From an uncultured bacterium (lineage in GTDB: Bacteria; Zixibacteria; MSB-5A5; JAABVY01; JAHJOQ01), in contig CBDUQR010000024.1 in the NCBI GenBank assembly GCA_965369655.1, positions 1 through 43,884 of the forward strand: DNA of 43,884 bases. The letters run 5' to 3'. A program made the position numbers and the translations under genes. The notes under the pieces are model-generated. The model worked only from the letters and a program-made list of their open reading frames with translations. It was not told where the DNA came from and did not search any database. Shown here one piece after another: positions 1-43,884 of the stretch (the first letter of the stretch is position 1; every line of letters begins with the position of its first letter).

Positions 1-9
1 TATTCTTCA

Positions 10-121
10 GTAGGTCGGCGTTCCGCAGCAGGCGAAGCCTGCAAGAAACCCGACTACCGGTCAACAAGATAGAGGTGTCGCGTTTCTCACCTGATTGCAT
101 CATGTTCGGAACACGACCTAC
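10..121. repeat. Inverted pair of GTAG-type REP-like palindromes (REPIN-like doublet)
   Basis: 10-54 GTAGGTCGGCGTTCCG...GAAACCCGAC and the reverse complement of 77-121 GTAGGTCGTGTTCCG...GAAACGCGAC share both arms; internal hairpin GCAGGC-GAA-GCCTGC at 28-42. Confidence 0.65.
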
Positions 122-146
122 TTTTTCGGACAGCCTTAATTAGCGC

Positions 147-175
147 TTGCGGATACTACCGATATGGGTTATGAT
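147..175 (+). promoter_or_regulatory. Putative sigma70 promoter of the membrane protein gene
   Basis: TTGCGG-17 bp-TATGAT; AGGAG at 199-203 downstream. Confidence 0.5.
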
Positions 176-238
176 TATCTCTAAGTTTGTCGCAAAACAG
201 GAGTTAGTATCATCGAAAAAGCTGCCGCACATAAGTTT

Positions 239-2551
239 ATGTTCACACTGACAGCCGCTCTCTGCGTGATCGCAATTGCAGCGCTTGTAACGGGTCATCT
301 CATTGAGTTCGACCTGTGGGGAATGTCTGCCTCGAAATGCCTCGGATCCGCGGTCTTCTTCCCGTTGATCGCAGTTGGAGTGATAGCGTTTCTGCTGACC
401 GCTTTTCGAAGAGAATCGAACATCGAGACCGAGATCGAACGCTCGCCCAGCATAATCGTTGCGGGTGCGATCGTTGCAATAGTCGGTGCGATAATCATCT
501 GGCTCACCTCCTCCGGGGGATTCTTCTGGCGAAACATTTTCTCAGGACCGATCTCGATATTCGGCAGCTACAGCGATGTTGTTCGCGCCTACTCCGATCT
601 GCCACCCGATTTCGACTTGATCGATCTCTGGCAGCAGACAGCGTTCCAGCGAATCCTCGCAGCGCTACTCGGCGGTGTATACATTTTCCTGACAGCGCTT
701 CTGACCAGAGAGATATTCGAGAAAGCCGGAACCAGATTCCTGGCGTTTCTATTCATTGCCACAACCGGAATGATCGCTGTCTTCAGCCGTCCCGGCGATT
801 TCGCGGTTATGCTGGTTCTGATGATTCTGAACGCATACCTGACGATTCTATTCTTCAAAGGTAAGACATCATTCTATGTCGCTGGGATCGTGCTGCTGAT
901 CTCAGCCGTTTTTCATCCCATGTTCGTGCTATTCGCCGTGTCACTTCTCTATGTGAGACTTTCAGGCAGACTCCTCGGCGGCGGCAAAGCCGGGCTGCCG
1001 ATCCTCATGCTCATAGTCCTGGCCATACTCGGCGCCGCACTGTCCCTGCTGCAAATCGAGCCATTCACCTCGGTATTCCGCCCCGAGACATCGGCGTCGC
1101 CGGTATTCGGCTCTGCGCACATCTGGGGACTCGCCAATCAATTGATGATGGTCTCGCACATCATCTGGCTGCTTTCGCTGATCACTTGTATCTACGCGTT
1201 TGTTTCCGCGCGAGTGACCGACCTGCACGGCATGCTGTTTGGCGCATGGTTCATCGCATCATCATCGTTCTACGTATTCAGTTATTCACACTATGGCTGG
1301 GTGTTCGGCTACCCCGGCACAGTTATTGTCCTCCTGCCGTCGGTGTTGTGGCTCGCTTATTTCCTGGTCGACATGGCTCCAGGGCGAGCGCAGAAATCCC
1401 TGACGCTGCTGATTATCGTCAATGTCCTGACCACCGTACCACTGCTCGCGGCCGTACACTCCAGCGACACATCGGTCGATCTGTACGCCGACATCCTGAA
1501 TCAGGATAATGCTTTCAATAAGAGTTTTGAGGACGGAAAAGGCGCGCTCCTGATGGGAATCATGCTCAGCGAGGAGCTTCAGGAATACGACAGAGCGCTG
1601 CCTTATTTGCAATCATACAGACAGAGCTACCCTATCGATCCGGTCGGACGCTATCACTACGGCTGGACTCTTACAAACGTTGACAGGGGGCTTGTTAAAG
1701 GCGTCGATGTTCTCAAGAAACTCGAGGGACACCTCGCAGAAACCGGCAAGCTTTTCTGGGAATTCAATTACCGAATCGGCTGGAAGCGGGTGGTTGGACA
1801 CAATTATGTGTACGGCTCTATTGCGCTGGAGCGTGCTGCGACCGAGGATAATACACTTGAAATATCAAGGTTGCTTGCCTCCGCCTACGAGAACATGAGA
1901 GTTTGGGATTCGACGGCCTCGAAATACGAGCAGATGATCGACTTCGGCGACTCGTCGAAGGAGAACTTCCATAAGGTCGCCATCGCTTCGGCAAGTCTCG
2001 ATGATTCGACAAGAGCAATCGAGTATTTCAAGTATGGTATCGAGCATTTCCCCAACTACATGGATAACTATGAATACATGGCACGCTACTATTTCCAGAA
2101 AGAGATGTATGATAGTCTCGAAATGCTGGCGGAGCACGGCCTCAAACACCTCGGACACTCTATTGAACTTGAAGCGTCTATGATACTGGTCTACCACTAC
2201 ACTGATCGACCCGAACAGCGCGACAGTCTTTATGCCGAATTCATGGACTATTTCCGCATATACCCGACCGCTCTTTATGACTGGGGGATTTTCCTTGAAG
2301 AAAATGGCCTTGTATACCAAGGTCGAAAGATGCAGGCTGCCGATATGACTGTCGCTAACTCCAATCTGCGTGTAATCCTCGGCTTTTATCACCACTACAA
2401 AATGACCGGGATTCCAGATTCGGCAAGAATTCTAATCGATCGCTTAATCGAATTCGATTCTGCGGGAGTTTTCATTGAAGTGACTGACGCGGTTCGGCAT
2501 TTCGATACGATCCTCTGGCCGGATGAACGATTCAGACGCGACTCCGACTGA
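239..2551 (+). CDS. Polytopic membrane protein with C-terminal TPR-like helical domain (possible GT-C-type glycosyltransferase-like)
   Basis: 770-aa ORF; about 11-13 hydrophobic segments in the first ~410 aa, then helical repeats with TPR-like patterns (YDRALPYL, RAIEYFKYGIEHFPNY). Confidence 0.7.
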   Translation: MFTLTAALCVIAIAALVTGHLIEFDLWGMSASKCLGSAVFFPLIAVGVIAFLLTAFRRESNIETEIERSPSIIVAGAIVAIVGAIIIWLTSSGGFFWRNIFSGPISIFGSYSDVVRAYSDLPPDFDLIDLWQQTAFQRILAALLGGVYIFLTALLTREIFEKAGTRFLAFLFIATTGMIAVFSRPGDFAVMLVLMILNAYLTILFFKGKTSFYVAGIVLLISAVFHPMFVLFAVSLLYVRLSGRLLGGGKAGLPILMLIVLAILGAALSLLQIEPFTSVFRPETSASPVFGSAHIWGLANQLMMVSHIIWLLSLITCIYAFVSARVTDLHGMLFGAWFIASSSFYVFSYSHYGWVFGYPGTVIVLLPSVLWLAYFLVDMAPGRAQKSLTLLIIVNVLTTVPLLAAVHSSDTSVDLYADILNQDNAFNKSFEDGKGALLMGIMLSEELQEYDRALPYLQSYRQSYPIDPVGRYHYGWTLTNVDRGLVKGVDVLKKLEGHLAETGKLFWEFNYRIGWKRVVGHNYVYGSIALERAATEDNTLEISRLLASAYENMRVWDSTASKYEQMIDFGDSSKENFHKVAIASASLDDSTRAIEYFKYGIEHFPNYMDNYEYMARYYFQKEMYDSLEMLAEHGLKHLGHSIELEASMILVYHYTDRPEQRDSLYAEFMDYFRIYPTALYDWGIFLEENGLVYQGRKMQAADMTVANSNLRVILGFYHHYKMTGIPDSARILIDRLIEFDSAGVFIEVTDAVRHFDTILWPDERFRRDSD

Positions 2552-2609
2552 TACATCATCCACTACAGGTGTGTTGAATAACCCGTGAAACTCGGAAGCT
2601 GCAACCGTC

Positions 2610-3004
2610 GTCATCACGAGGAGCTACAGCGACGTGGTGATCTCACTCGTCACCCCTGCACAGGCAGGGGTCCAGACAAGCTTTTCCAGTCTGTAACATT
2701 GCGCTTTCTGAAGCTGGTTCTGGATTCCCGTCTTCACGGGAATGACGAGGACCAGTAACTGACATGCTTGATATTGCCACACTCCCTGCGGTCGCTCGCA
2801 ATGACAGCAAGACTCAGTGGTACTGTGGGTGGCAGACGTCCTCGCGAGTCCTGAGCTTCGAAGGGTCTGCCCCATCTTGCGCTAACATCGGCGGGGTGGC
2901 ATGCACAAACTTGTTTGGGCATGAGTACCAACACGCCCAAGCACAGCTTGAGCGTGCCACCCATCGGCATTCTGCAGGTCAAGCGGGCAGGCCGCTTGAC
3001 CTAC
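2610..3004. repeat. Mosaic of REP-like palindromic repeats (nested inverted pairs of several families)
   Basis: Pairs 2610-2644/2770-2805, 2646-2676/2719-2749 and 2894-2923/2932-2962; GGCAGAC...GTCTGCC at 2831-2871; 11-bp hairpin at 2976-3002 followed by AC (GTAGGTC start on minus strand). Confidence 0.8.
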
Positions 3005-3009
3005 ATGGA

Positions 3010-3462
3010 CTATTCGGACCCTGGTTTTTTTCGTTTCATCCGGATTGCGACTTCATCGGTATCTTTCTGCAGCGCGAGATTGAGATCATGAGTATACTGG
3101 TCTCTCCTGATCTCCTTGAGGCGTTCGTATTTTTTCACTTCTCTTGATGATTCCTCCAGCTCCTTACGGCGCTTGTCGGTCTCTTCCGACTGGCGCTCCA
3201 CGACCCCTGACTGATGCCTGACGAGGAAGCCAAGCTGGCCCATGTATTCGCTGGTTCTGCGGAGATTCTCCGGCTCGACTCTGCGCAGACGTTTGGAGCG
3301 GTCTTTTGCGCGACGCAGTGAGACCTCTGTCTTGAGCGTCTCGAGTCTGCTTCGTTCCTCAGCTTCCTGTTGCTTAGCCTGCGCGAGGCGACGCTGAGAT
3401 TGTTTCTTCCGATCCTCTTTCAGCTTCTTCAACTTGTCGAGGCGGAACTTGAATTTCTTCAC
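3010..3462 (-). CDS. fliJ: Flagellar export protein FliJ
   Basis: 150 aa coiled coil, N-terminus MKKFKFRLDKL, C-terminal QKDTDE, directly after fliI; GTG start. Confidence 0.9.
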   Translation of the reverse strand: MKKFKFRLDKLKKLKEDRKKQSQRRLAQAKQQEAEERSRLETLKTEVSLRRAKDRSKRLRRVEPENLRRTSEYMGQLGFLVRHQSGVVERQSEETDKRRKELEESSREVKKYERLKEIRRDQYTHDLNLALQKDTDEVAIRMKRKKPGSE

Positions 3463-4771
3463 GGTCGATTATTGCCTTGAGATGTTCGATGTCTGCTTCA
3501 AAGTCACTCGTTTCCGTCATATCCTGAGTAAGGAAATTGTTGATGTCGCCAAGTTTCGCGATTGCCTCGTCCGTGAGCGCATGTGATCCTTTCACATAGG
3601 CACCGATGGTGATGAGGTCTTCCGAGTCGCGATATGCTGCGAGCAGTTCCCGCACTCTTCCCGCGACTCGACGGTGCTCATCGGTGACGATATCGGGCAT
3701 GACTCTCGACACGGAATCGAGCACATCCACCGCAGGATAATGATTGCGATTCGCGAGTCTCCGCGACAGCGTCACATGTCCATCCAGTATGGATCGCACG
3801 GCATCGGATACCGGCTCATTGAAATCATCACCCTCGACCAGTACCGTGTATATACCGCTGATGCTTCCCTTCGCGGTGACACCCGGCCTCTCGAGAAGCT
3901 TCGGAAGAAACGCGAAGACCGATGGGGTGTAGCCTTTGGTTGCCGGCGGTTCGCCAACCGCCAATCCGATTTCGCGTAACCCCATTGCGATCCTCGTGAT
4001 CGAATCGATCATCAGGATAACATCTTTGCCCTGATCTCGAAAATACTCAGCGATCGTAGTTGCAACGAGTGCGCCCTTGACTTTAATCAGGGCTGGCTGA
4101 TCCGATGTCACAGCCACAACGACAGAGCGTTTCAAGCCATCCTCGCCAAGGTCTCGTTCGAGGAAATCCCTCACTTCGCGCCCGCGTTCGCCGATCAGGC
4201 CGATCACGTTCACATCCGCCCTCGAATGCCTGGCGATCATGCCCATCATAACGCTCTTCCCTACACCTGATCCGGCGAAAATTCCGAGCCTCTGCCCCTT
4301 GCCGCATGTTACCATTGAATCGAGTGAGCGCACGCCTGTGACGACAGGCTCGGCAATCCTGATCCGCTTCAGTGGATGGGGCGGCGTGGCGTACACATAG
4401 CTTTTATTGTCGCAACAGAGAGGTCCTTTGTCATCGAGTGGCTTTCCGAGACCGTCGAGGATTCTCCCGAGGAGTTCATCTCCGGTTTCGACACAAAATG
4501 TCTCGCCAGTCGCCTCTACAACCGAACCCGGATTGATACCGCTCATATCCCCCAGCGGCATCAACATAACCTGCCGGTCCTTGAATCCGACCACCTCGGC
4601 GAGAACAGGCTCACCTCCCTCGCATGGGAGTATCCTGCAGAGTTCGCCGATTGACGTTGAGGGTCCCGTTGAGGAAATTACAAGGCCGATAACCCGCGCA
4701 ACTTTCCCCTGCTGTCTGAGGGTCACGGCGCCTTCCACCGCGTCGCTGTATTTTCTGAAGATATCCGGCAT
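3374..4771 (-). CDS. fliI: Flagellar export ATPase FliI
   Basis: Walker A GIFAGSGVGKS, GERGREV, GEPPATKGY, ILDGH motifs; between fliH and fliJ. Confidence 0.96.
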   Translation of the reverse strand: MPDIFRKYSDAVEGAVTLRQQGKVARVIGLVISSTGPSTSIGELCRILPCEGGEPVLAEVVGFKDRQVMLMPLGDMSGINPGSVVEATGETFCVETGDELLGRILDGLGKPLDDKGPLCCDNKSYVYATPPHPLKRIRIAEPVVTGVRSLDSMVTCGKGQRLGIFAGSGVGKSVMMGMIARHSRADVNVIGLIGERGREVRDFLERDLGEDGLKRSVVVAVTSDQPALIKVKGALVATTIAEYFRDQGKDVILMIDSITRIAMGLREIGLAVGEPPATKGYTPSVFAFLPKLLERPGVTAKGSISGIYTVLVEGDDFNEPVSDAVRSILDGHVTLSRRLANRNHYPAVDVLDSVSRVMPDIVTDEHRRVAGRVRELLAAYRDSEDLITIGAYVKGSHALTDEAIAKLGDINNFLTQDMTETSDFEADIEHLKAIIDREEIQVPPRQVEEAERGSEETISASPRAG

Positions 4772-5415
4772 CAGTTGTCGGAATGGCTGGCGTTGGCTTT
4801 TCTCAGGGAGTCTGTGATTGCCTGAATCTCTGTTTCGATGCGTGCATCGACATTTCCCGAATCAGTTTCGAGCACGCATCCTCCCGGAGCAATTCGTCTG
4901 TCTGATTCGATCGTCACGCGTTGAATCCTGTCATCTATCGCGTACAAATCATCGAGCCTTTCTCTCACGAATGATTCCTGCTCCGGCGACACTTTGATTA
5001 CGAGTGTCGAACGATCAAGCAACAGACGAACTGCCTTGCGCGCAGCATCGATCACCAACTCCGGATCGAATTCAGCCTTGACTCCAATGATCTTCTTCGC
5101 AATTTCCATCGCCAGATCGATGACCTCAGACTCAGCCTGCCGGTAGATTTCCGCCCGCTGAGCCTCGACGTCGGCTGCGAGTCTATTGAAACTTTCGGCG
5201 ACCTTGCGGGCCTCCTGCATCCCATCTTCGAGTCCCGACCTGCGGCCTTCCTCATGACCCCTGCGGTACGCTTCTTCTTTTTCGACTCTGGATCGCTCCA
5301 GAAGTTCGATGTATTCTTTTTCAAGGACGTATTTGGGAGCGGTGACTGCGTCGTCTCTCAGACCGATTGTGAACTTCTCGTCAGAGACGCGAACTCTGCT
5401 GAGAAGGTTAGACAA
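4771..5415 (-). CDS. fliH: Flagellar assembly protein FliH
   Basis: GxxxG repeats (AYRRGHEEGRRSGLEDG), C-terminal GGCVLETDSGNVDARIE; start moved to TTG at 5415 overlapping the fliG stop, with GGAAGG upstream. Confidence 0.9.
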   Translation of the reverse strand: MSNLLSRVRVSDEKFTIGLRDDAVTAPKYVLEKEYIELLERSRVEKEEAYRRGHEEGRRSGLEDGMQEARKVAESFNRLAADVEAQRAEIYRQAESEVIDLAMEIAKKIIGVKAEFDPELVIDAARKAVRLLLDRSTLVIKVSPEQESFVRERLDDLYAIDDRIQRVTIESDRRIAPGGCVLETDSGNVDARIETEIQAITDSLRKANASHSDN

Positions 5416-25247: not shown

Positions 25248-26453
25248 TTACTCCAGAATTTCCGTTACGACGCCGGCGCCGACTGTGCGACCACCCTCAC
25301 GGATGGCGAAACGAAGCTCCTTCTCTATCGCAACCTCAGTGTGAAGCTCTACTTCCATCTGGATGTTGTCGCCTGGCATAACCATCTCGACATTCTCAGG
25401 AAGCTTGATCGAACCGGTTACATCCGTCGTACGTAAATAAAACTGTGGACGATAACCATTGAAGAACGGCGTGTGACGACCACCCTCCTCTTTCTTCAAC
25501 ACATAAACCTCGCCCATAAACTTCTTGTGGGGCTTGATGCTCCCTATCTTCGCGACCACCTGACCACGCTCGATCTCATCCTTGTCTACGCCGCGAAGAA
25601 GCAAACCTACATTGTCGCCAGCCTCACCGCTGTCAAGAATCTTACGGAACATCTCGACGCCTGTCACAACAGTCTTGCGAGTCGCCTTGAATCCCACGAT
25701 CTCCACCTCTGTGCCTGTCGTGATTGCGCCACGCTCGATTCGACCCGTAGCTACCGTACCACGACCCGTGATCGAAAAAACATCCTCGACAGGCATCAGG
25801 AACGGCTTGTCGGTCTCACGCTCAGGAGTCGGGATGTAATTGTCGCAAGCATCCATCAACTCATAAACACACTTGAACGAAGGATCATCCTTGATGTCAG
25901 GATCTGCCGCTTTAGTCATCGCCTCGAGCGCACTGCCGCGAATGATCGGAATGTCGTCGCCCGGAAAATCATACGCCGACAAAAGCTCGCGAACCTCAAG
26001 CTCTACCAAATCCAAAAGCTCTGGATCATCAACCTGATCGACTTTGTTCATGAATACTATCATATACGGTACGCCCACCTGACGAGCAAGAAGAATGTGC
26101 TCGCGGGTCTGAGGCATCGGACCATCCGCGGCTGATACCACAAGTATTGCGCCGTCCATCTGAGCCGCGCCCGTGATCATGTTCTTGATATAATCCGCGT
26201 GACCCGGACAATCTACATGAGCATAGTGACGATTCTTTGTCTCGTACTCAACATGAGCCGTCGCGATCGTGATACCGCGCTCGCGTTCTTCGGGGGCATT
26301 GTCAATCGAATCAAATGTACGTATCTCACTCAAACCGTCGCGAGACAATATCATCGTCATTGCCGCTGTCAACGTAGTCTTGCCATGGTCAACGTGACCG
26401 ATAGTTCCTACGTTAACATGTGGCTTCGTCCTCTTATACTTTTCCTTCGCCAT
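25248..26453 (-). CDS. tuf: Elongation factor Tu (str-operon copy)
   Basis: [23 protein letters not shown]; start moved to ATG 26453 after GGAGG. Confidence 0.99.
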
Positions 26454-26494
26454 ATCCGACACATCCTCCAGAAAAAAGAATAACTCGTCTAATA

Positions 26495-41026: not shown

Positions 41027-42232
41027 TTACTCCAGAATTTCCGTTACGACGCCGGCGCCGACTGTGCGACCACCCTCACGGATGGCGAAACGAAGCTCCT
41101 TCTCTATCGCAACCTCAGTGTGAAGCTCTACTTCCATCTGGATGTTGTCGCCTGGCATAACCATCTCGACATTCTCAGGAAGCTTGATCGAACCGGTTAC
41201 ATCCGTCGTACGTAAATAAAACTGTGGACGATAACCATTGAAGAACGGCGTGTGACGACCACCCTCCTCTTTCTTCAACACATAAACCTCGCCCATAAAC
41301 TTCTTGTGGGGCTTGATGCTCCCTATCTTCGCGACCACCTGACCACGCTCGATCTCATCCTTGTCTACGCCGCGAAGAAGCAAACCTACATTGTCGCCAG
41401 CCTCACCGCTGTCAAGAATCTTACGGAACATCTCGACGCCTGTCACAACAGTCTTGCGAGTCGCCTTGAATCCCACGATCTCCACCTCTGTGCCTGTCGT
41501 GATTGCGCCACGCTCGATTCGACCCGTAGCTACCGTACCACGACCCGTGATCGAAAAAACATCCTCGACAGGCATCAGGAACGGCTTGTCGGTCTCACGC
41601 TCAGGAGTCGGGATGTAATTGTCGCAAGCATCCATCAACTCATAAACACACTTGAACGAAGGATCATCCTTGATGTCAGGATCTGCCGCTTTAGTCATCG
41701 CCTCGAGCGCACTGCCGCGAATGATCGGAATGTCGTCGCCCGGAAAATCATACGCCGACAAAAGCTCGCGAACCTCAAGCTCTACCAAATCCAAAAGCTC
41801 TGGATCATCAACCTGATCGACTTTGTTCATGAATACTATCATATACGGTACGCCCACCTGACGAGCAAGAAGAATGTGCTCGCGGGTCTGAGGCATCGGA
41901 CCATCCGCGGCTGATACCACAAGTATTGCGCCGTCCATCTGAGCCGCGCCCGTGATCATGTTCTTGATATAATCCGCGTGACCCGGACAATCTACATGAG
42001 CATAGTGACGATTCTTTGTCTCGTACTCAACATGAGCCGTCGCGATCGTGATACCGCGCTCGCGTTCTTCGGGGGCATTGTCAATCGAATCAAATGTACG
42101 TATCTCACTCAAACCGTCGCGAGACAATATCATCGTCATCGCCGCAGTCAACGTCGTCTTGCCATGGTCGACGTGACCGATAGTACCTACGTTGACATGC
42201 GGCTTCGTCCTCTTAAACTTTTCCTTCGCCAT
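41027..42232 (-). CDS. tuf: Elongation factor Tu (tRNA-linked copy)
   Basis: Same protein as the 25248-26453 copy except F for Y at residue 6. Confidence 0.99.
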
Positions 42233-42294
42233 CTATCGACTCCCTTCCTCAAGGGTTAGGCAAAAAACTTTTCTTGCTCCTCAAACGCACTCAG

Positions 42295-42367
42295 AGCCCA
42301 CGACCAGGATTGAACTGGTGACCTCATCCTTACCAAGGATGTGCTCTACCAACTGAGCTACGTGGGC
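42295..42367 (-). tRNA. tRNA-Thr (GGT)
   Basis: GCCCACG...CGTGGGC acceptor stem, anticodon loop TT-GGT-AA, GTTCAAT T-loop; CCA not encoded. Confidence 0.97.
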
Positions 42368-42428
42368 ATCCCTATTCAAACGCATGGCCGCCCATAAAAA
42401 AACGGACACGTGCCCAAAGTAAACCATG

Positions 42429-42456
42429 AATTTACGAACCCAGGAAATCTTGTCAA
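42429..42456 (-). promoter_or_regulatory. sigma70 promoter for tRNA-Thr/tuf
   Basis: TTGACA-16 bp-TAAATT with an A-tract upstream. Confidence 0.7.
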
Positions 42457-42590
42457 GCGGTTTTTTCTGATTTTCTGCCCGAACCCGACGTTTCTCAACA
42501 AGATATACTGCTCCACCCGGTTCTATCGGCAGAAATGCGGCTCCCTTCAGGCACATTTTTTGTTTACCGCGGAATTTCGCCACCGGGTCA

Positions 42591-42667
42591 TGGAGCGGGA
42601 GACGGGATTCGAACCCGCGACCAACAGCTTGGAAGGCTGTGACTCTAGCCAACTGAGTTACTCCCGC
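42591..42667 (-). tRNA. tRNA-Gly (TCC)
   Basis: GCGGGAG...CTCCCGC acceptor stem, anticodon loop CT-TCC-AA, GGTTCGAAT, encoded CCA. Confidence 0.97.
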
Positions 42668-42677
42668 ACGGCGAATG

Positions 42678-42706
42678 AAGATAATCGCAGGCGTCACGAC
42701 TGTCAA
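42678..42706 (-). promoter_or_regulatory. sigma70 promoter for tRNA-Gly
   Basis: TTGACA-17 bp-TATCTT ending 10 bp before the tRNA 5' end. Confidence 0.7.
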
Positions 42707-42790
42707 GCCCGTTTCGGGAGATGTCCTGCGAAGAGACTCGTCCCAAGCCCGTCCGTCCACGTAACTTCTTCTAATGACTCAGCCAAAATG

Positions 42791-42819
42791 TTGACACCGC
42801 AACGTTAATGCAGCATATT
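42791..42819 (+). promoter_or_regulatory. sigma70 promoter for the TIR-domain gene
   Basis: TTGACA-17 bp-CATATT, divergent from the tRNA-Gly promoter. Confidence 0.65.
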
Positions 42820-42916
42820 CCGTTTATTGGCACTGGTCCAATATGTTGTCACGAATCGGACTTGGAAGTGCAGGGCAGAAAAGACAGTATTTGGAACTAC
42901 AAGTGAGGTAAGCTTG

Positions 42917-43834
42917 ATGTTATATCATATCAGAATACTCCTACCTAAAGAAATGCAGAGCCGCTACAAGTTAGATGTGACTGAAAAAATCCTTATGAAG
43001 AGGATCGTCACTCCATACAAGAACGGCCAGAGTTTTACGTTGTCTGGAAAGACCATAGCACCCACTGATATCAAAGAAATCCAGATAGTACGGACAGAGA
43101 AATCGTCCGAAGAGCTTATGCCATCTATTCGTGCCAAGATACAAGCTGACCAAGAAGCAAGCGGAGTAGGCGCCGCAATCCCCGACGAATATTACTTGAT
43201 GGAACATGGCACAGACGTTACAGATGAATTGTTAACTCAGCCACCCAAGAGCTCGTCAGACAAACAGGCACAAGAGGTCAGTAATACTGTTACGTCGGAT
43301 AGGGAAGTATTTGTTGTGCATGGAAGGAACGATAAAATCAATAAGGCAATGTTTGATTTCCTGCACTCGATTGATTTGAAACCTACTGAGTGGGCCAAAG
43401 CCATCCAGCTTACAGGGAAGAGTGCACCTTACGTGGGCCAAGTCCTAGATGCGGCACTTCCAAATGCACAAGCTGTGATAGTCTTATTGACTCCAGACGA
43501 CATTGTGTATCTGCGAGAGTCTCTCCGTCATCAGAATGATCCCCCTTACGAGAGTGAGCCAACCCCACAAGCGCGGCCGAACGTGCTCTTTGAGGCTGGT
43601 ATGGCCATGGGCCGAAGACCCGAAAGAACGATAATAGTTCAAATAGGGAATTTACGACCTTTCAGCGATATTAGTGGTATACATTTAATCAATATCGATA
43701 GTTCAACTTCCTGGCGCAAGGACATGGCTAATCGACTTCAGAGCGCGGGCTGTGCAGTTGATTTATCTGGAACTGAGTGGTTAACTGCCGGTGTTTTTGA
43801 GTTTGAAGAGCCGAATGAAGAAGAGTTGGTATGA
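42917..43834 (+). CDS. TIR-like (CAP12/Pycsar-type) nucleotide-binding domain protein with unassigned N-terminal domain
   Basis: VFVVHGR, AVIVLLTPDD, QARPNVLFEAG, PFSDISG motifs in the C-terminal half; start moved to ATG 42917 after GAGGT (305 aa). Confidence 0.88.
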   Translation: MLYHIRILLPKEMQSRYKLDVTEKILMKRIVTPYKNGQSFTLSGKTIAPTDIKEIQIVRTEKSSEELMPSIRAKIQADQEASGVGAAIPDEYYLMEHGTDVTDELLTQPPKSSSDKQAQEVSNTVTSDREVFVVHGRNDKINKAMFDFLHSIDLKPTEWAKAIQLTGKSAPYVGQVLDAALPNAQAVIVLLTPDDIVYLRESLRHQNDPPYESEPTPQARPNVLFEAGMAMGRRPERTIIVQIGNLRPFSDISGIHLINIDSSTSWRKDMANRLQSAGCAVDLSGTEWLTAGVFEFEEPNEEELV

Positions 43835-43884
43835 ACCTCCCCCGATTAAGTGGACACATCGAGAAGATAGAGTTTTATTCTATT
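43832..43884. mobile_element. Possible IS3-family terminal inverted repeat (element would run off the window)
   Basis: TGAACCTCCCCCGATTAAGTGGACAC resembles IS3-type ends (5'-TGA...AGTGGACAC); no transposase or partner repeat visible. Confidence 0.5.

Follow-up and report, generated by a model that had tools for sequence, protein, structure and literature searches.

A candidate phage defence TIR gene of the PDC-S35 family, ending at an insertion-sequence-like repeat in an uncultured Zixibacteria bacterium

The window analysed here, 43,884 b in length, is the entire contig CBDUQR010000024.1 (contig C24 of genome G000; assembly GCA_965369655.1) of an uncultured bacterium of the Zixibacteria. Close to its right end, on the forward strand, a genuine open reading frame (ORF) at positions 42917–43834 encodes a 305-aa protein, P0001, that combines an N-terminal domain with a TIR domain and matches the PADLOC family PDC-S35 from end to end. 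We interpret the P0001 family as single-polypeptide abortive-infection TIR NADases and candidates for phage defence, and the gene in this genome as a horizontally acquired, low-GC copy, a joint explanation to which we assign a probability of roughly 0.55. The NADase mechanism is proposed because of the TIR subtype and the logic of the domain arrangement. The stop codon of the gene lies in a multi-copy repeat that ends the contig, and the 305-aa ORF is probably truncated.

The TIR assignment is consistent across sequence and structure comparisons. Pfam finds a single family in P0001, PF10137 (CAP12/Pycsar effector TIR), at residues 131–261 (E 1.5e-28; 99.6 bits against a gathering cut-off of 24.7; profile positions 2–118 of 119). 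An AlphaFold2 (AF2) model computed with 43 homologues has a mean predicted local distance difference test score (pLDDT) of 88 and resolves two domains separated by a disordered linker, whose residues 115–124 score below 50. In nucleotide positions (+), the N-terminal domain (residues 1–112; hereafter N-domain) spans 42917–43252, the low-confidence and alignment-variable linker (approximately residues 113–128) 43253–43300, and the PF10137-type TIR domain (approximately residues 129–296) 43301–43804. The best Foldseek match of the C-terminal domain was the TIR of SfSTING (7un8_A, E 1e-4), then a TIR-STING protein (9lmq_B, E 6.3e-4), with animal and bacterial TIRs next. Glu226 of the NVLFEAG motif (codon 43592–43594), the presumed catalytic glutamate, is present without exception in the 43 aligned homologues and lies within the stretch (residues 216–264) that aligns to the Cap12 NCBIfam model. 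None of the STING, SAVED and cyclic nucleotide (cNMP)-binding families in Pfam and NCBIfam matched P0001. Furthermore, the genome, which is 99.5% complete, has no match to class III cyclases (PF00211) or to the SMODS domain of CD-NTases (PF18144), with the DNA beyond the repeat being known only in part. The sequence-only reading of this window had described an N-domain, a linker and a Cap12/Pycsar-type TIR with its glutamate intact, and had recognised no STING, SAVED or cNMP-binding domain and no cyclase; all of this agrees with the AF2 model and the profile searches.

P0001 also has a full-length counterpart among catalogued defence candidates. The PADLOC profile PDLC05007 (PDC-S35) matches residues 3–284 over profile positions 3–275 of 278 (E 3.6e-30), and four further PDC-S35 profiles match with E values from 1.6e-23 to 4.9e-12, all judged by E value and coverage rather than by PADLOC's own cut-offs. 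Matches to the PADLOC profiles for PycTIR and for CBASS TIR effectors are confined to the TIR part (E 1e-7 to 4e-5). Judged by these profiles, the architecture of P0001 is already catalogued as an unvalidated PDC-S35 candidate. The sequence-only reading had set the protein apart from known TIR effectors by its N-domain, and the end-to-end match overtakes this in part, toward an architecture described already, if itself unvalidated. Payne et al. (bioRxiv 10.1101/2024.01.29.577857) introduced the PDCs as 145 'guilt-by-embedding' phage defence candidates, drawn from genes located inside BREX, DISARM and Type I restriction-modification (R-M) systems, and these were added to PADLOC. A later preprint states that it left out PDCs 'because they are unvalidated'.

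The family is large and unevenly distributed. At E≤1e-3, 5150 proteins among 6297 candidates from a 90%-cluster database are homologues of P0001. The best 120 all carry PF10137, cover 91–100% of the query at 43–69% identity, and are mostly about 295–310 aa long, many others reaching 370–525 aa through extra C-terminal sequence. Databases name these proteins only 'nucleotide-binding protein'. We located 492 relatives in one-genome-per-species contigs, mostly in Dehalococcoidia and other Chloroflexota, followed by Actinomycetota, with some in Bathyarchaeota, Latescibacterota, Zixibacteriota and Spirochaetia. Distant full-length relatives (25–30% identity) occur on small plasmids of Acinetobacter and Bacillus, with a query coverage of 80% or more in 9 of 35 plasmid records; one plasmid relative stands alone among toxin-antitoxin genes and another lies between two recombinase genes. 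For example, a non-mobilizable 10.9-kb plasmid of Acinetobacter pittii (L102) carries a lone homologue at 3910–4794 (28.5% identity over residues 1–284), flanked by a RelE/ParE-helix-turn-helix pair and a DUF1778-GNAT pair. Two actinobacterial loci (L080, 9869–12125, and L082, 10001–13700) have two paralogous PF10137 TIR genes each, at a short distance from one another, the L082 pair comprising one with and one without the N-domain. A scan of metagenome contigs with P0001 gave 36 pattern matches and no relatives.

The N-domain is a compact fold shared by proteins with different effectors. Folded alone, residues 1–112 gave a pLDDT of 91.2 and a predicted template modelling score of 0.80, with a predicted order of two strands, a helix, three strands, one long helix and two short helices. 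The alignment shows conservation of H4, D20, P33, G37, G44, T102 and a DVTD..I..PPG motif. H4, D20 and T102 are near-invariant even across proteins with different effectors, and this polar conservation is a hint that the domain binds or catalyses something instead of acting as a spacer. No Pfam family recurs among 31 N-domains (none is found in more than one), and a search of PDB sequences returned a best E of 0.45. None of 48,161 chains compared with the fold reached Z≥5, the best being Rv3208A (7rur; Z 4.6, root-mean-square deviation 2.9 over 58 residues). Foldseek, the check that had been proposed for this domain, gave a best E of 0.11 and no assignment, and the N-domain stays without a Pfam or PDB family. 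A search of the ESM Atlas with residues 1–112 peaked at a score of 0.76 and provided leads only. We also considered an RNase HIII-N-like fold, which gained no support for P0001; that fold is absent from the 50 fold matches listed.

A profile built from the 31 N-domains retrieved 1263 cluster representatives at E≤1e-3, 588 of them at E≤1e-10. We scanned 145 of the best 150 for partner domains (the other five are PF10137 proteins from the homologue list) and found PF10137 in 55, TIR_2 in 12, TIR in 6, a DpnII-MboI restriction nuclease in 4, Hypoth_Ymh in 3, and WD40 and AAA in one each. Of the proteins that lack a PF10137-type TIR, the ten longest comprise five with TIR_2 and one each with an alpha/beta-hydrolase/DUF7379, a PNP_UDP_1 phosphorylase-like domain, AbiJ_NTD4, DpnII-MboI and nothing recognisable; 32 of the 88 N-domain proteins without a PF10137-type TIR are shorter than 200 aa and may be fragments. 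Because it is fused elsewhere to TIR_2, a PNP-like domain, a restriction endonuclease and a hydrolase, the N-domain is, by domain composition, an effector-independent module. Conversely, the TIR part has longer relatives in which many other modules stand N-terminally, and none of the 120 listed is fused to an R-M subunit. Domain swapping of this sort typically marks conflict-system proteins built from a sensor or adaptor and an effector, and we infer that the P0001 family follows this pattern. The earlier proposal of a sensor or oligomerisation module was sound in treating the N-domain as a separate module, one that recurs with other effectors; an oligomerisation role gained no support.

The genomic neighbourhoods of the relatives connect the N-domain form to R-M systems. 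From the 492 relatives, 80 loci were kept and ORFs were called crudely, as the longest non-overlapping frames of at least 70 aa. An ORF matching P0001 was recovered at 74 loci (six were lost at this step), 49 of them with a BLASTP-detectable N-domain. The neighbours were clustered, the representatives were annotated with Pfam, and all ORFs were then searched with profiles of those clusters, which include hsdM, hsdS, hsdR, a YgjP-like peptidase, DUF2442, an Eco57I-like Type IIG enzyme and an AAA_21/AAA_15 ATPase. Within ±10 kb, Type I R-M genes occur at 23 of the 49 N-domain loci versus 0 of the 25 TIR loci without a detectable N-domain, and the counts for any R-M gene are 28/49 versus 2/25. 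Furthermore, 15 of the 49 N-domain loci (the set in which this position was counted) have the TIR gene between a same-strand hsdS no more than two genes upstream and hsdR no more than five genes downstream. The background is 2–4 HSDR_N matches per genome of 3.2–4.4 Mb in five genomes with embedded cases; as a rough estimate, from genomes chosen for showing the feature, chance adjacency would be about 1–2%. Apart from the R-M genes, no neighbour family recurs across the loci. Type I R-M operons of Dehalococcoidia (L008, L012, L013, L021, L024, L030 and others) carry DUF2442 and ORFs of 78–130 aa upstream of the TIR gene, between hsdM and hsdS, and at 13 of the 49 loci a gene for a YgjP-like metallopeptidase comes after hsdR.

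These features suggest how the proteins could act. The core would consist of the N-domain, an alpha/beta domain of about 110 aa, a flexible linker and the Cap12/Pycsar-type TIR, to which many members add a variable C-terminal module. The protein would be inactive until infection, when a cue would be read by its non-catalytic modules, namely the N-domain and, in members that have one, the C-terminal module. Assembly of the TIR domains and hydrolysis of NAD+ would follow, and the loss of NAD+ would stop the infected cell (abortive infection) with no second-messenger cyclase involved. TIRs in CBASS, Pycsar and prokaryotic Argonaute contexts are described as NAD+-depleting effectors by Yirmiya et al. 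(bioRxiv 10.64898/2025.12.03.692087).

The gene itself bears marks of a foreign origin. Its GC content is 45.6% compared to 52.5±1.7% for 822 tiles of 918 bp over positions 1–42000, whose lowest value is 47.8%, so that no tile comes down to that of the gene; the AT-richness earlier noticed by eye is thereby borne out by computation. The gene is also accessory, being found in none of five genomes of the same family and represented among 40 relatives by only two weak, TIR-only matches. The longest frame runs from a TTG (42827–43834, 335 aa), but translation probably begins at the ATG at 42917, since all homologues begin with M-P-Y-H-V-R-I and a GAGG stands 8 nt 5' of it (42905–42908, +, read from the sequence as a ribosome-binding site). 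A sigma-70-like match (TTGACA-17-CATATT, 10 of 12 positions) at 42791–42819 (+) lies 98 nt upstream of the ATG. The sequence-only reading had credited the gene with its own promoter; the site exists as a consensus match only, one of four such sites in 42200–43884 compared to 1.9±1.5 in shuffled sequences.

At its 3' end, the gene runs into a repeat. The stop codon TGA (43832–43834) is the first three bases of the left end of a multi-copy sequence (43832–43884, +) inside which the contig ends. Contigs of three metagenome runs cover the gene at a depth of about 5–6 in the interval 42700–43884, whereas 43832–43884 reaches about 700–790 summed in two runs and 224–272 in the third, a repeat end about 100-fold deeper than the flanking gene. 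Many short contigs join at 43826–43832 from differing upstream sequences, and the metagenome contig ends past the window carry a ribosome-binding site and a start codon. The 52–54 nt from the TGA end 12 contigs of the genome, each with a different flank (besides C24: C42, C11, C81, C69, C68, C43, C38, C35, C19, C49 and C83), and right ends were found on C90, C91, C63, C7, C80, C16, C53, C89 and C46. The assembly thus holds at least 12 left and at least nine right junctions of an element whose body is absent from the bin. No terminal inverted repeat was visible by eye. The repeat behaves as one end of a multi-copy, insertion sequence (IS)-like element with an unbinned body, and because it begins exactly at the TGA, the element supplies the stop codon of P0001. 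What the sequence-only reading had taken for an island edge is really a contig break at this repeat, which cuts the 3' end of the gene. A short downstream frame (ORF2; ATG 43831 overlapping the stop, 18 open codons) was considered as a coupled gene and rejected; it lies wholly inside the repeat and BLASTP to P0002, described next, returned nothing.

The sequence that may be lost can be gauged from the closest homologue. This protein, P0002, is 459 aa long and 69% identical to P0001; its alignment reaches the junction, beyond which it has about 155 further residues. Its residues 388–456 match contig C90 of the same genome at 3986–4204 (-) with 43% identity (E 2.2e-10). This remnant begins directly beside a second repeat, shared by C90 and eight other contig ends at 94–98% identity, and reads away from it; it has 79 open codons, with in-frame stops just upstream, within the repeat. 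The C90 segment with the remnant has 46.4% GC versus 52.9% for the rest of the contig. On the simplest reading, an IS insertion split a P0002-like gene; this also calls for the loss of about 80 codons or for a further insertion. The 305 aa that remain stop 11 residues past the C-terminal GDF motif, in the way of natural short forms, and so contain a complete catalytic core. The truncated protein could still work, or it may equally be decaying.

C-terminal extensions are widespread and diverse in the family, with 28 of the 49 N-domain ORFs at least 390 aa long. One extension of about 120 aa is common to 26 loci and is a separate ORF in L017, and no Pfam family was found in any extension. A single extension family was rejected; a profile of the commonest Dehalococcoidia form (26 sequences) misses the P0002 tail, the C90 remnant and several other extensions. 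Since the core is conserved and the tail varies, a contribution of the tail to specificity seems plausible.

Several points weigh against reading P0001 as a working NADase of a defence family. NADase activity, trigger and oligomerisation are all deduced from subtype and domain arrangement; P0001 has no sequence-level relative in the PDB, and the catalytic equivalence of Glu226 is argued from motif and fold only. A full-text literature search for 'PDC-S35' returned nothing, the papers listed on TIR domains together with hsdR, hsdS or embedding do not treat this family, and no experimentally characterised member was found. At 21 of the 49 N-domain loci there is no R-M gene, and the 119 flanking ORFs are mainly metabolic, with few toxin-antitoxin genes (two PIN, two HicB-like, two DUF2442) or defence genes (two mad3, two mad8, and one each of PDC-S28, a DRT-type reverse transcriptase-helicase and a UvrD/GajB-like helicase). 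The R-M counts also overstate the number of independent events because the embedded loci are mostly from related Dehalococcoidia. The defence-island setting proposed from the window alone is therefore a mixed case, with 28 of 49 relatives adjoining R-M genes and 21 among housekeeping genes. In this genome, the adjacency of C24 and C90 is deduced from the P0002 match, the contigs showing no terminal overlap of at least 12 nt and no matching target duplication, and no counterpart was found for about 80 codons of the P0002-like tail. Finally, P0001 is without the C-terminal module and may be inactive.

The last point leads to an explanation that we hold tentatively and consider unlikely, in which this copy is a decaying pseudogene that lost a required C-terminal module to the IS insertion and whose remaining sequence is drifting. 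The stop codon taken from the repeat, the 459 aa of the closest homologue, the frequency of long forms and the few open codons left in the C90 remnant, with stops inside the repeat, all fit such decay. However, the reading frame is open through all 305 codons and preserves every residue invariant in the family, a ribosome-binding site and promoter-like site are present, and natural short forms of 295–330 aa that end a few residues past the same GDF motif are common. Under a second explanation, which we regard as improbable, the N-domain docks the TIR on a Type I R-M complex and the TIR is triggered once that complex has been disabled by a phage anti-restriction protein, as in a PrrC-like guard. 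The hsdS–hsdR position found in 15 of 49 loci is that of PrrC, which, according to Payne et al. (bioRxiv 10.1101/2024.01.29.577857), is almost only embedded in Type I R-M, and the lack of Type I genes at all 25 loci without a detectable N-domain points the same way. However, the genome studied here has no HSDR_N match, 21 loci do without R-M genes, distant full-length homologues occur as lone genes on small plasmids, surrounded by toxin-antitoxin genes, and the 120 longer relatives listed include no R-M subunit fusion. The site may also be a mere insertion hotspot, given the many unrelated defence genes that the same preprint reports as embedded there. A broader form of this idea, with similarly small odds, would make the N-domain an undescribed, effector-independent immune sensor or adaptor with at least six effector types (two TIR subtypes, a PNP-like nucleosidase, a restriction endonuclease, an alpha/beta-hydrolase and an AbiJ-like protein, as predicted from their domains) that, in embedded copies, couples the effector to the state of the Type I R-M complex, a TIR analogue of PrrC firing upon phage anti-restriction proteins.

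Two other explanations change the role of the TIR itself, and each has, in our view, only a slim chance of being correct. In a Thoeris-like scheme, the TIR would make a nucleotide signal from NAD+ to which a separate effector, such as the product of a downstream gene, responds. Many bacterial TIRs are ThsB enzymes that produce signals for a wide range of effectors (Yirmiya et al., bioRxiv 10.64898/2025.12.03.692087), and a 119-aa SH3 ORF on C90 overlaps the stop of the remnant by ATGA. However, this ORF has no homologue in the 80 loci, R-M genes are the only recurrent neighbours, PF10137 TIRs are described as a separate clade named for Cap12 and Pycsar effectors, and Yirmiya et al. set standalone TIRs aside as non-Thoeris. 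Alternatively, the protein could be non-immune, either an enzyme that processes nucleotides or nucleosides or a mobile-DNA addiction module, built on a TIR/flavodoxin-like fold. Weak Foldseek matches to a nucleoside 2'-deoxyribosyltransferase (9emx, E 2.5e-2) and to flavodoxin-like proteins are consistent with this possibility, as are the database name, the plasmid relative among toxin-antitoxin genes and the 21 loci in housekeeping neighbourhoods. Against it, the best fold matches are immune TIRs, the partner domains of the N-domain are the usual set of immune effectors, and R-M neighbours are in excess.

We therefore return to the single-polypeptide abortive-infection reading and compare P0001 with described systems. 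PDC-S35 is the closest, through the full-length profile match, the single-gene organisation and relatives embedded in Type I R-M operons, the context in which PDCs were found. The copy described here differs in lying outside any R-M system, beside a tRNA-tuf cluster, with its 3' end cut by the IS-like repeat. CBASS Cap12 (TIR-STING; SfSTING 7un8 and 9lmq) shares the PF10137 TIR subtype and provides the best structural match of the C-terminal domain, but P0001 lacks STING, scores 18.2 bits against a cut-off of 450 with NF050171 (a match in the TIR only), has no CD-NTase match in its genome and has the reverse domain order, with its extra domain N-terminal to the TIR. Pycsar PycTIR likewise shares the TIR subtype, and its PADLOC model matches residues 130–268 (E 1.1e-7), but only in the TIR part (positions 153–265 of 288); P0001 has no cNMP-binding part and its genome no class III cyclase. 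PrrC is the anticodon nuclease of the E. coli prr locus and consists of an ABC-ATPase plus a nuclease. It occupies the same position between hsdS and hsdR as 15 of 49 relatives of P0001, whereas the effector of P0001 is a TIR, its genome is without a match to the HsdR N-terminal domain, and binding to an R-M complex is conjectural. Like ThsB of Thoeris, P0001 would be a bacterial immune TIR acting on NAD+; ThsB, however, signals to a partner effector, and P0001 has no conserved partner and a TIR of the effector-type PF10137 clade, the DNA downstream in its own genome being interrupted by the repeat. Because standalone TIR proteins were discarded from the Thoeris survey of Yirmiya et al. (bioRxiv 10.64898/2025.12.03.692087), the class of P0001 falls outside that survey.

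To the catalogue entry, the present analysis adds an effector-independent N-domain without a family, a quantified R-M embedding, the variable tails and the IS truncation of this copy. The value of the finding is in the family rather than in this copy. Thousands of TIR proteins, concentrated in the poorly studied Chloroflexota/Dehalococcoidia, Actinomycetota, Bathyarchaeota and Zixibacteria, are catalogued only as an unvalidated candidate, and knowing what the N-domain senses would add a new sensor module to the bacterial TIR repertoire. The same work would test whether R-M-embedded genes monitor the R-M enzyme. The copy in this genome mainly illustrates the gain of such genes, seen in its low GC, and their erosion by IS insertion.

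The gene is read in the opposite orientation to the tRNA and tuf genes beside it, which at the right end of the contig comprise, on the minus strand, tuf (41027–42232), tRNA-Thr(ggt) (42294–42367) and tRNA-Gly(tcc) (42591–42667). The cluster lies upstream of a large block of ribosomal protein genes, fusA, tuf and rpoBC, named by ORF size and order except for tuf at 41027–42232, which was named from its own translation. The TIR gene of this genome is thus not embedded in R-M genes and adjoins the tRNA-tuf cluster, and the HSDR_N profile matches nowhere in the genome. An empty insertion site could not be defined by synteny: the related genomes G003 and G004 keep tRNA-Gly, tRNA-Thr and tuf, with differing genes upstream. 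The window has two tuf copies (25248–26462 and 41027–42232, -) with 98% identity over their first 333 nt, and the assemblies of relatives often break at tuf. Rfam finds the two tRNAs and nothing else in 42200–43884. The spacer of about 220 nt between tRNA-Thr and tRNA-Gly (42368–42590), which has no Rfam match, is about 72–73% identical in two other genera of the same family and carries promoter-like and terminator-like matches on the minus strand.

Contig C90 (locus L097) carries two further ORFs near the remnant. The 119-aa ORF at 3618–3977 (-) encodes a variant SH3 domain (SH3_2, E 8.2e-7), its ATG overlapping the stop of the remnant, and lies in the same low-GC patch. A convergent ORF at 3–3122 (+) encodes a putative surface protein, longer than 1039 aa, in which a Cys-rich repeat of about 95 aa recurs many times; its C-terminal tail resembles a sorting domain of the type IX secretion system type.

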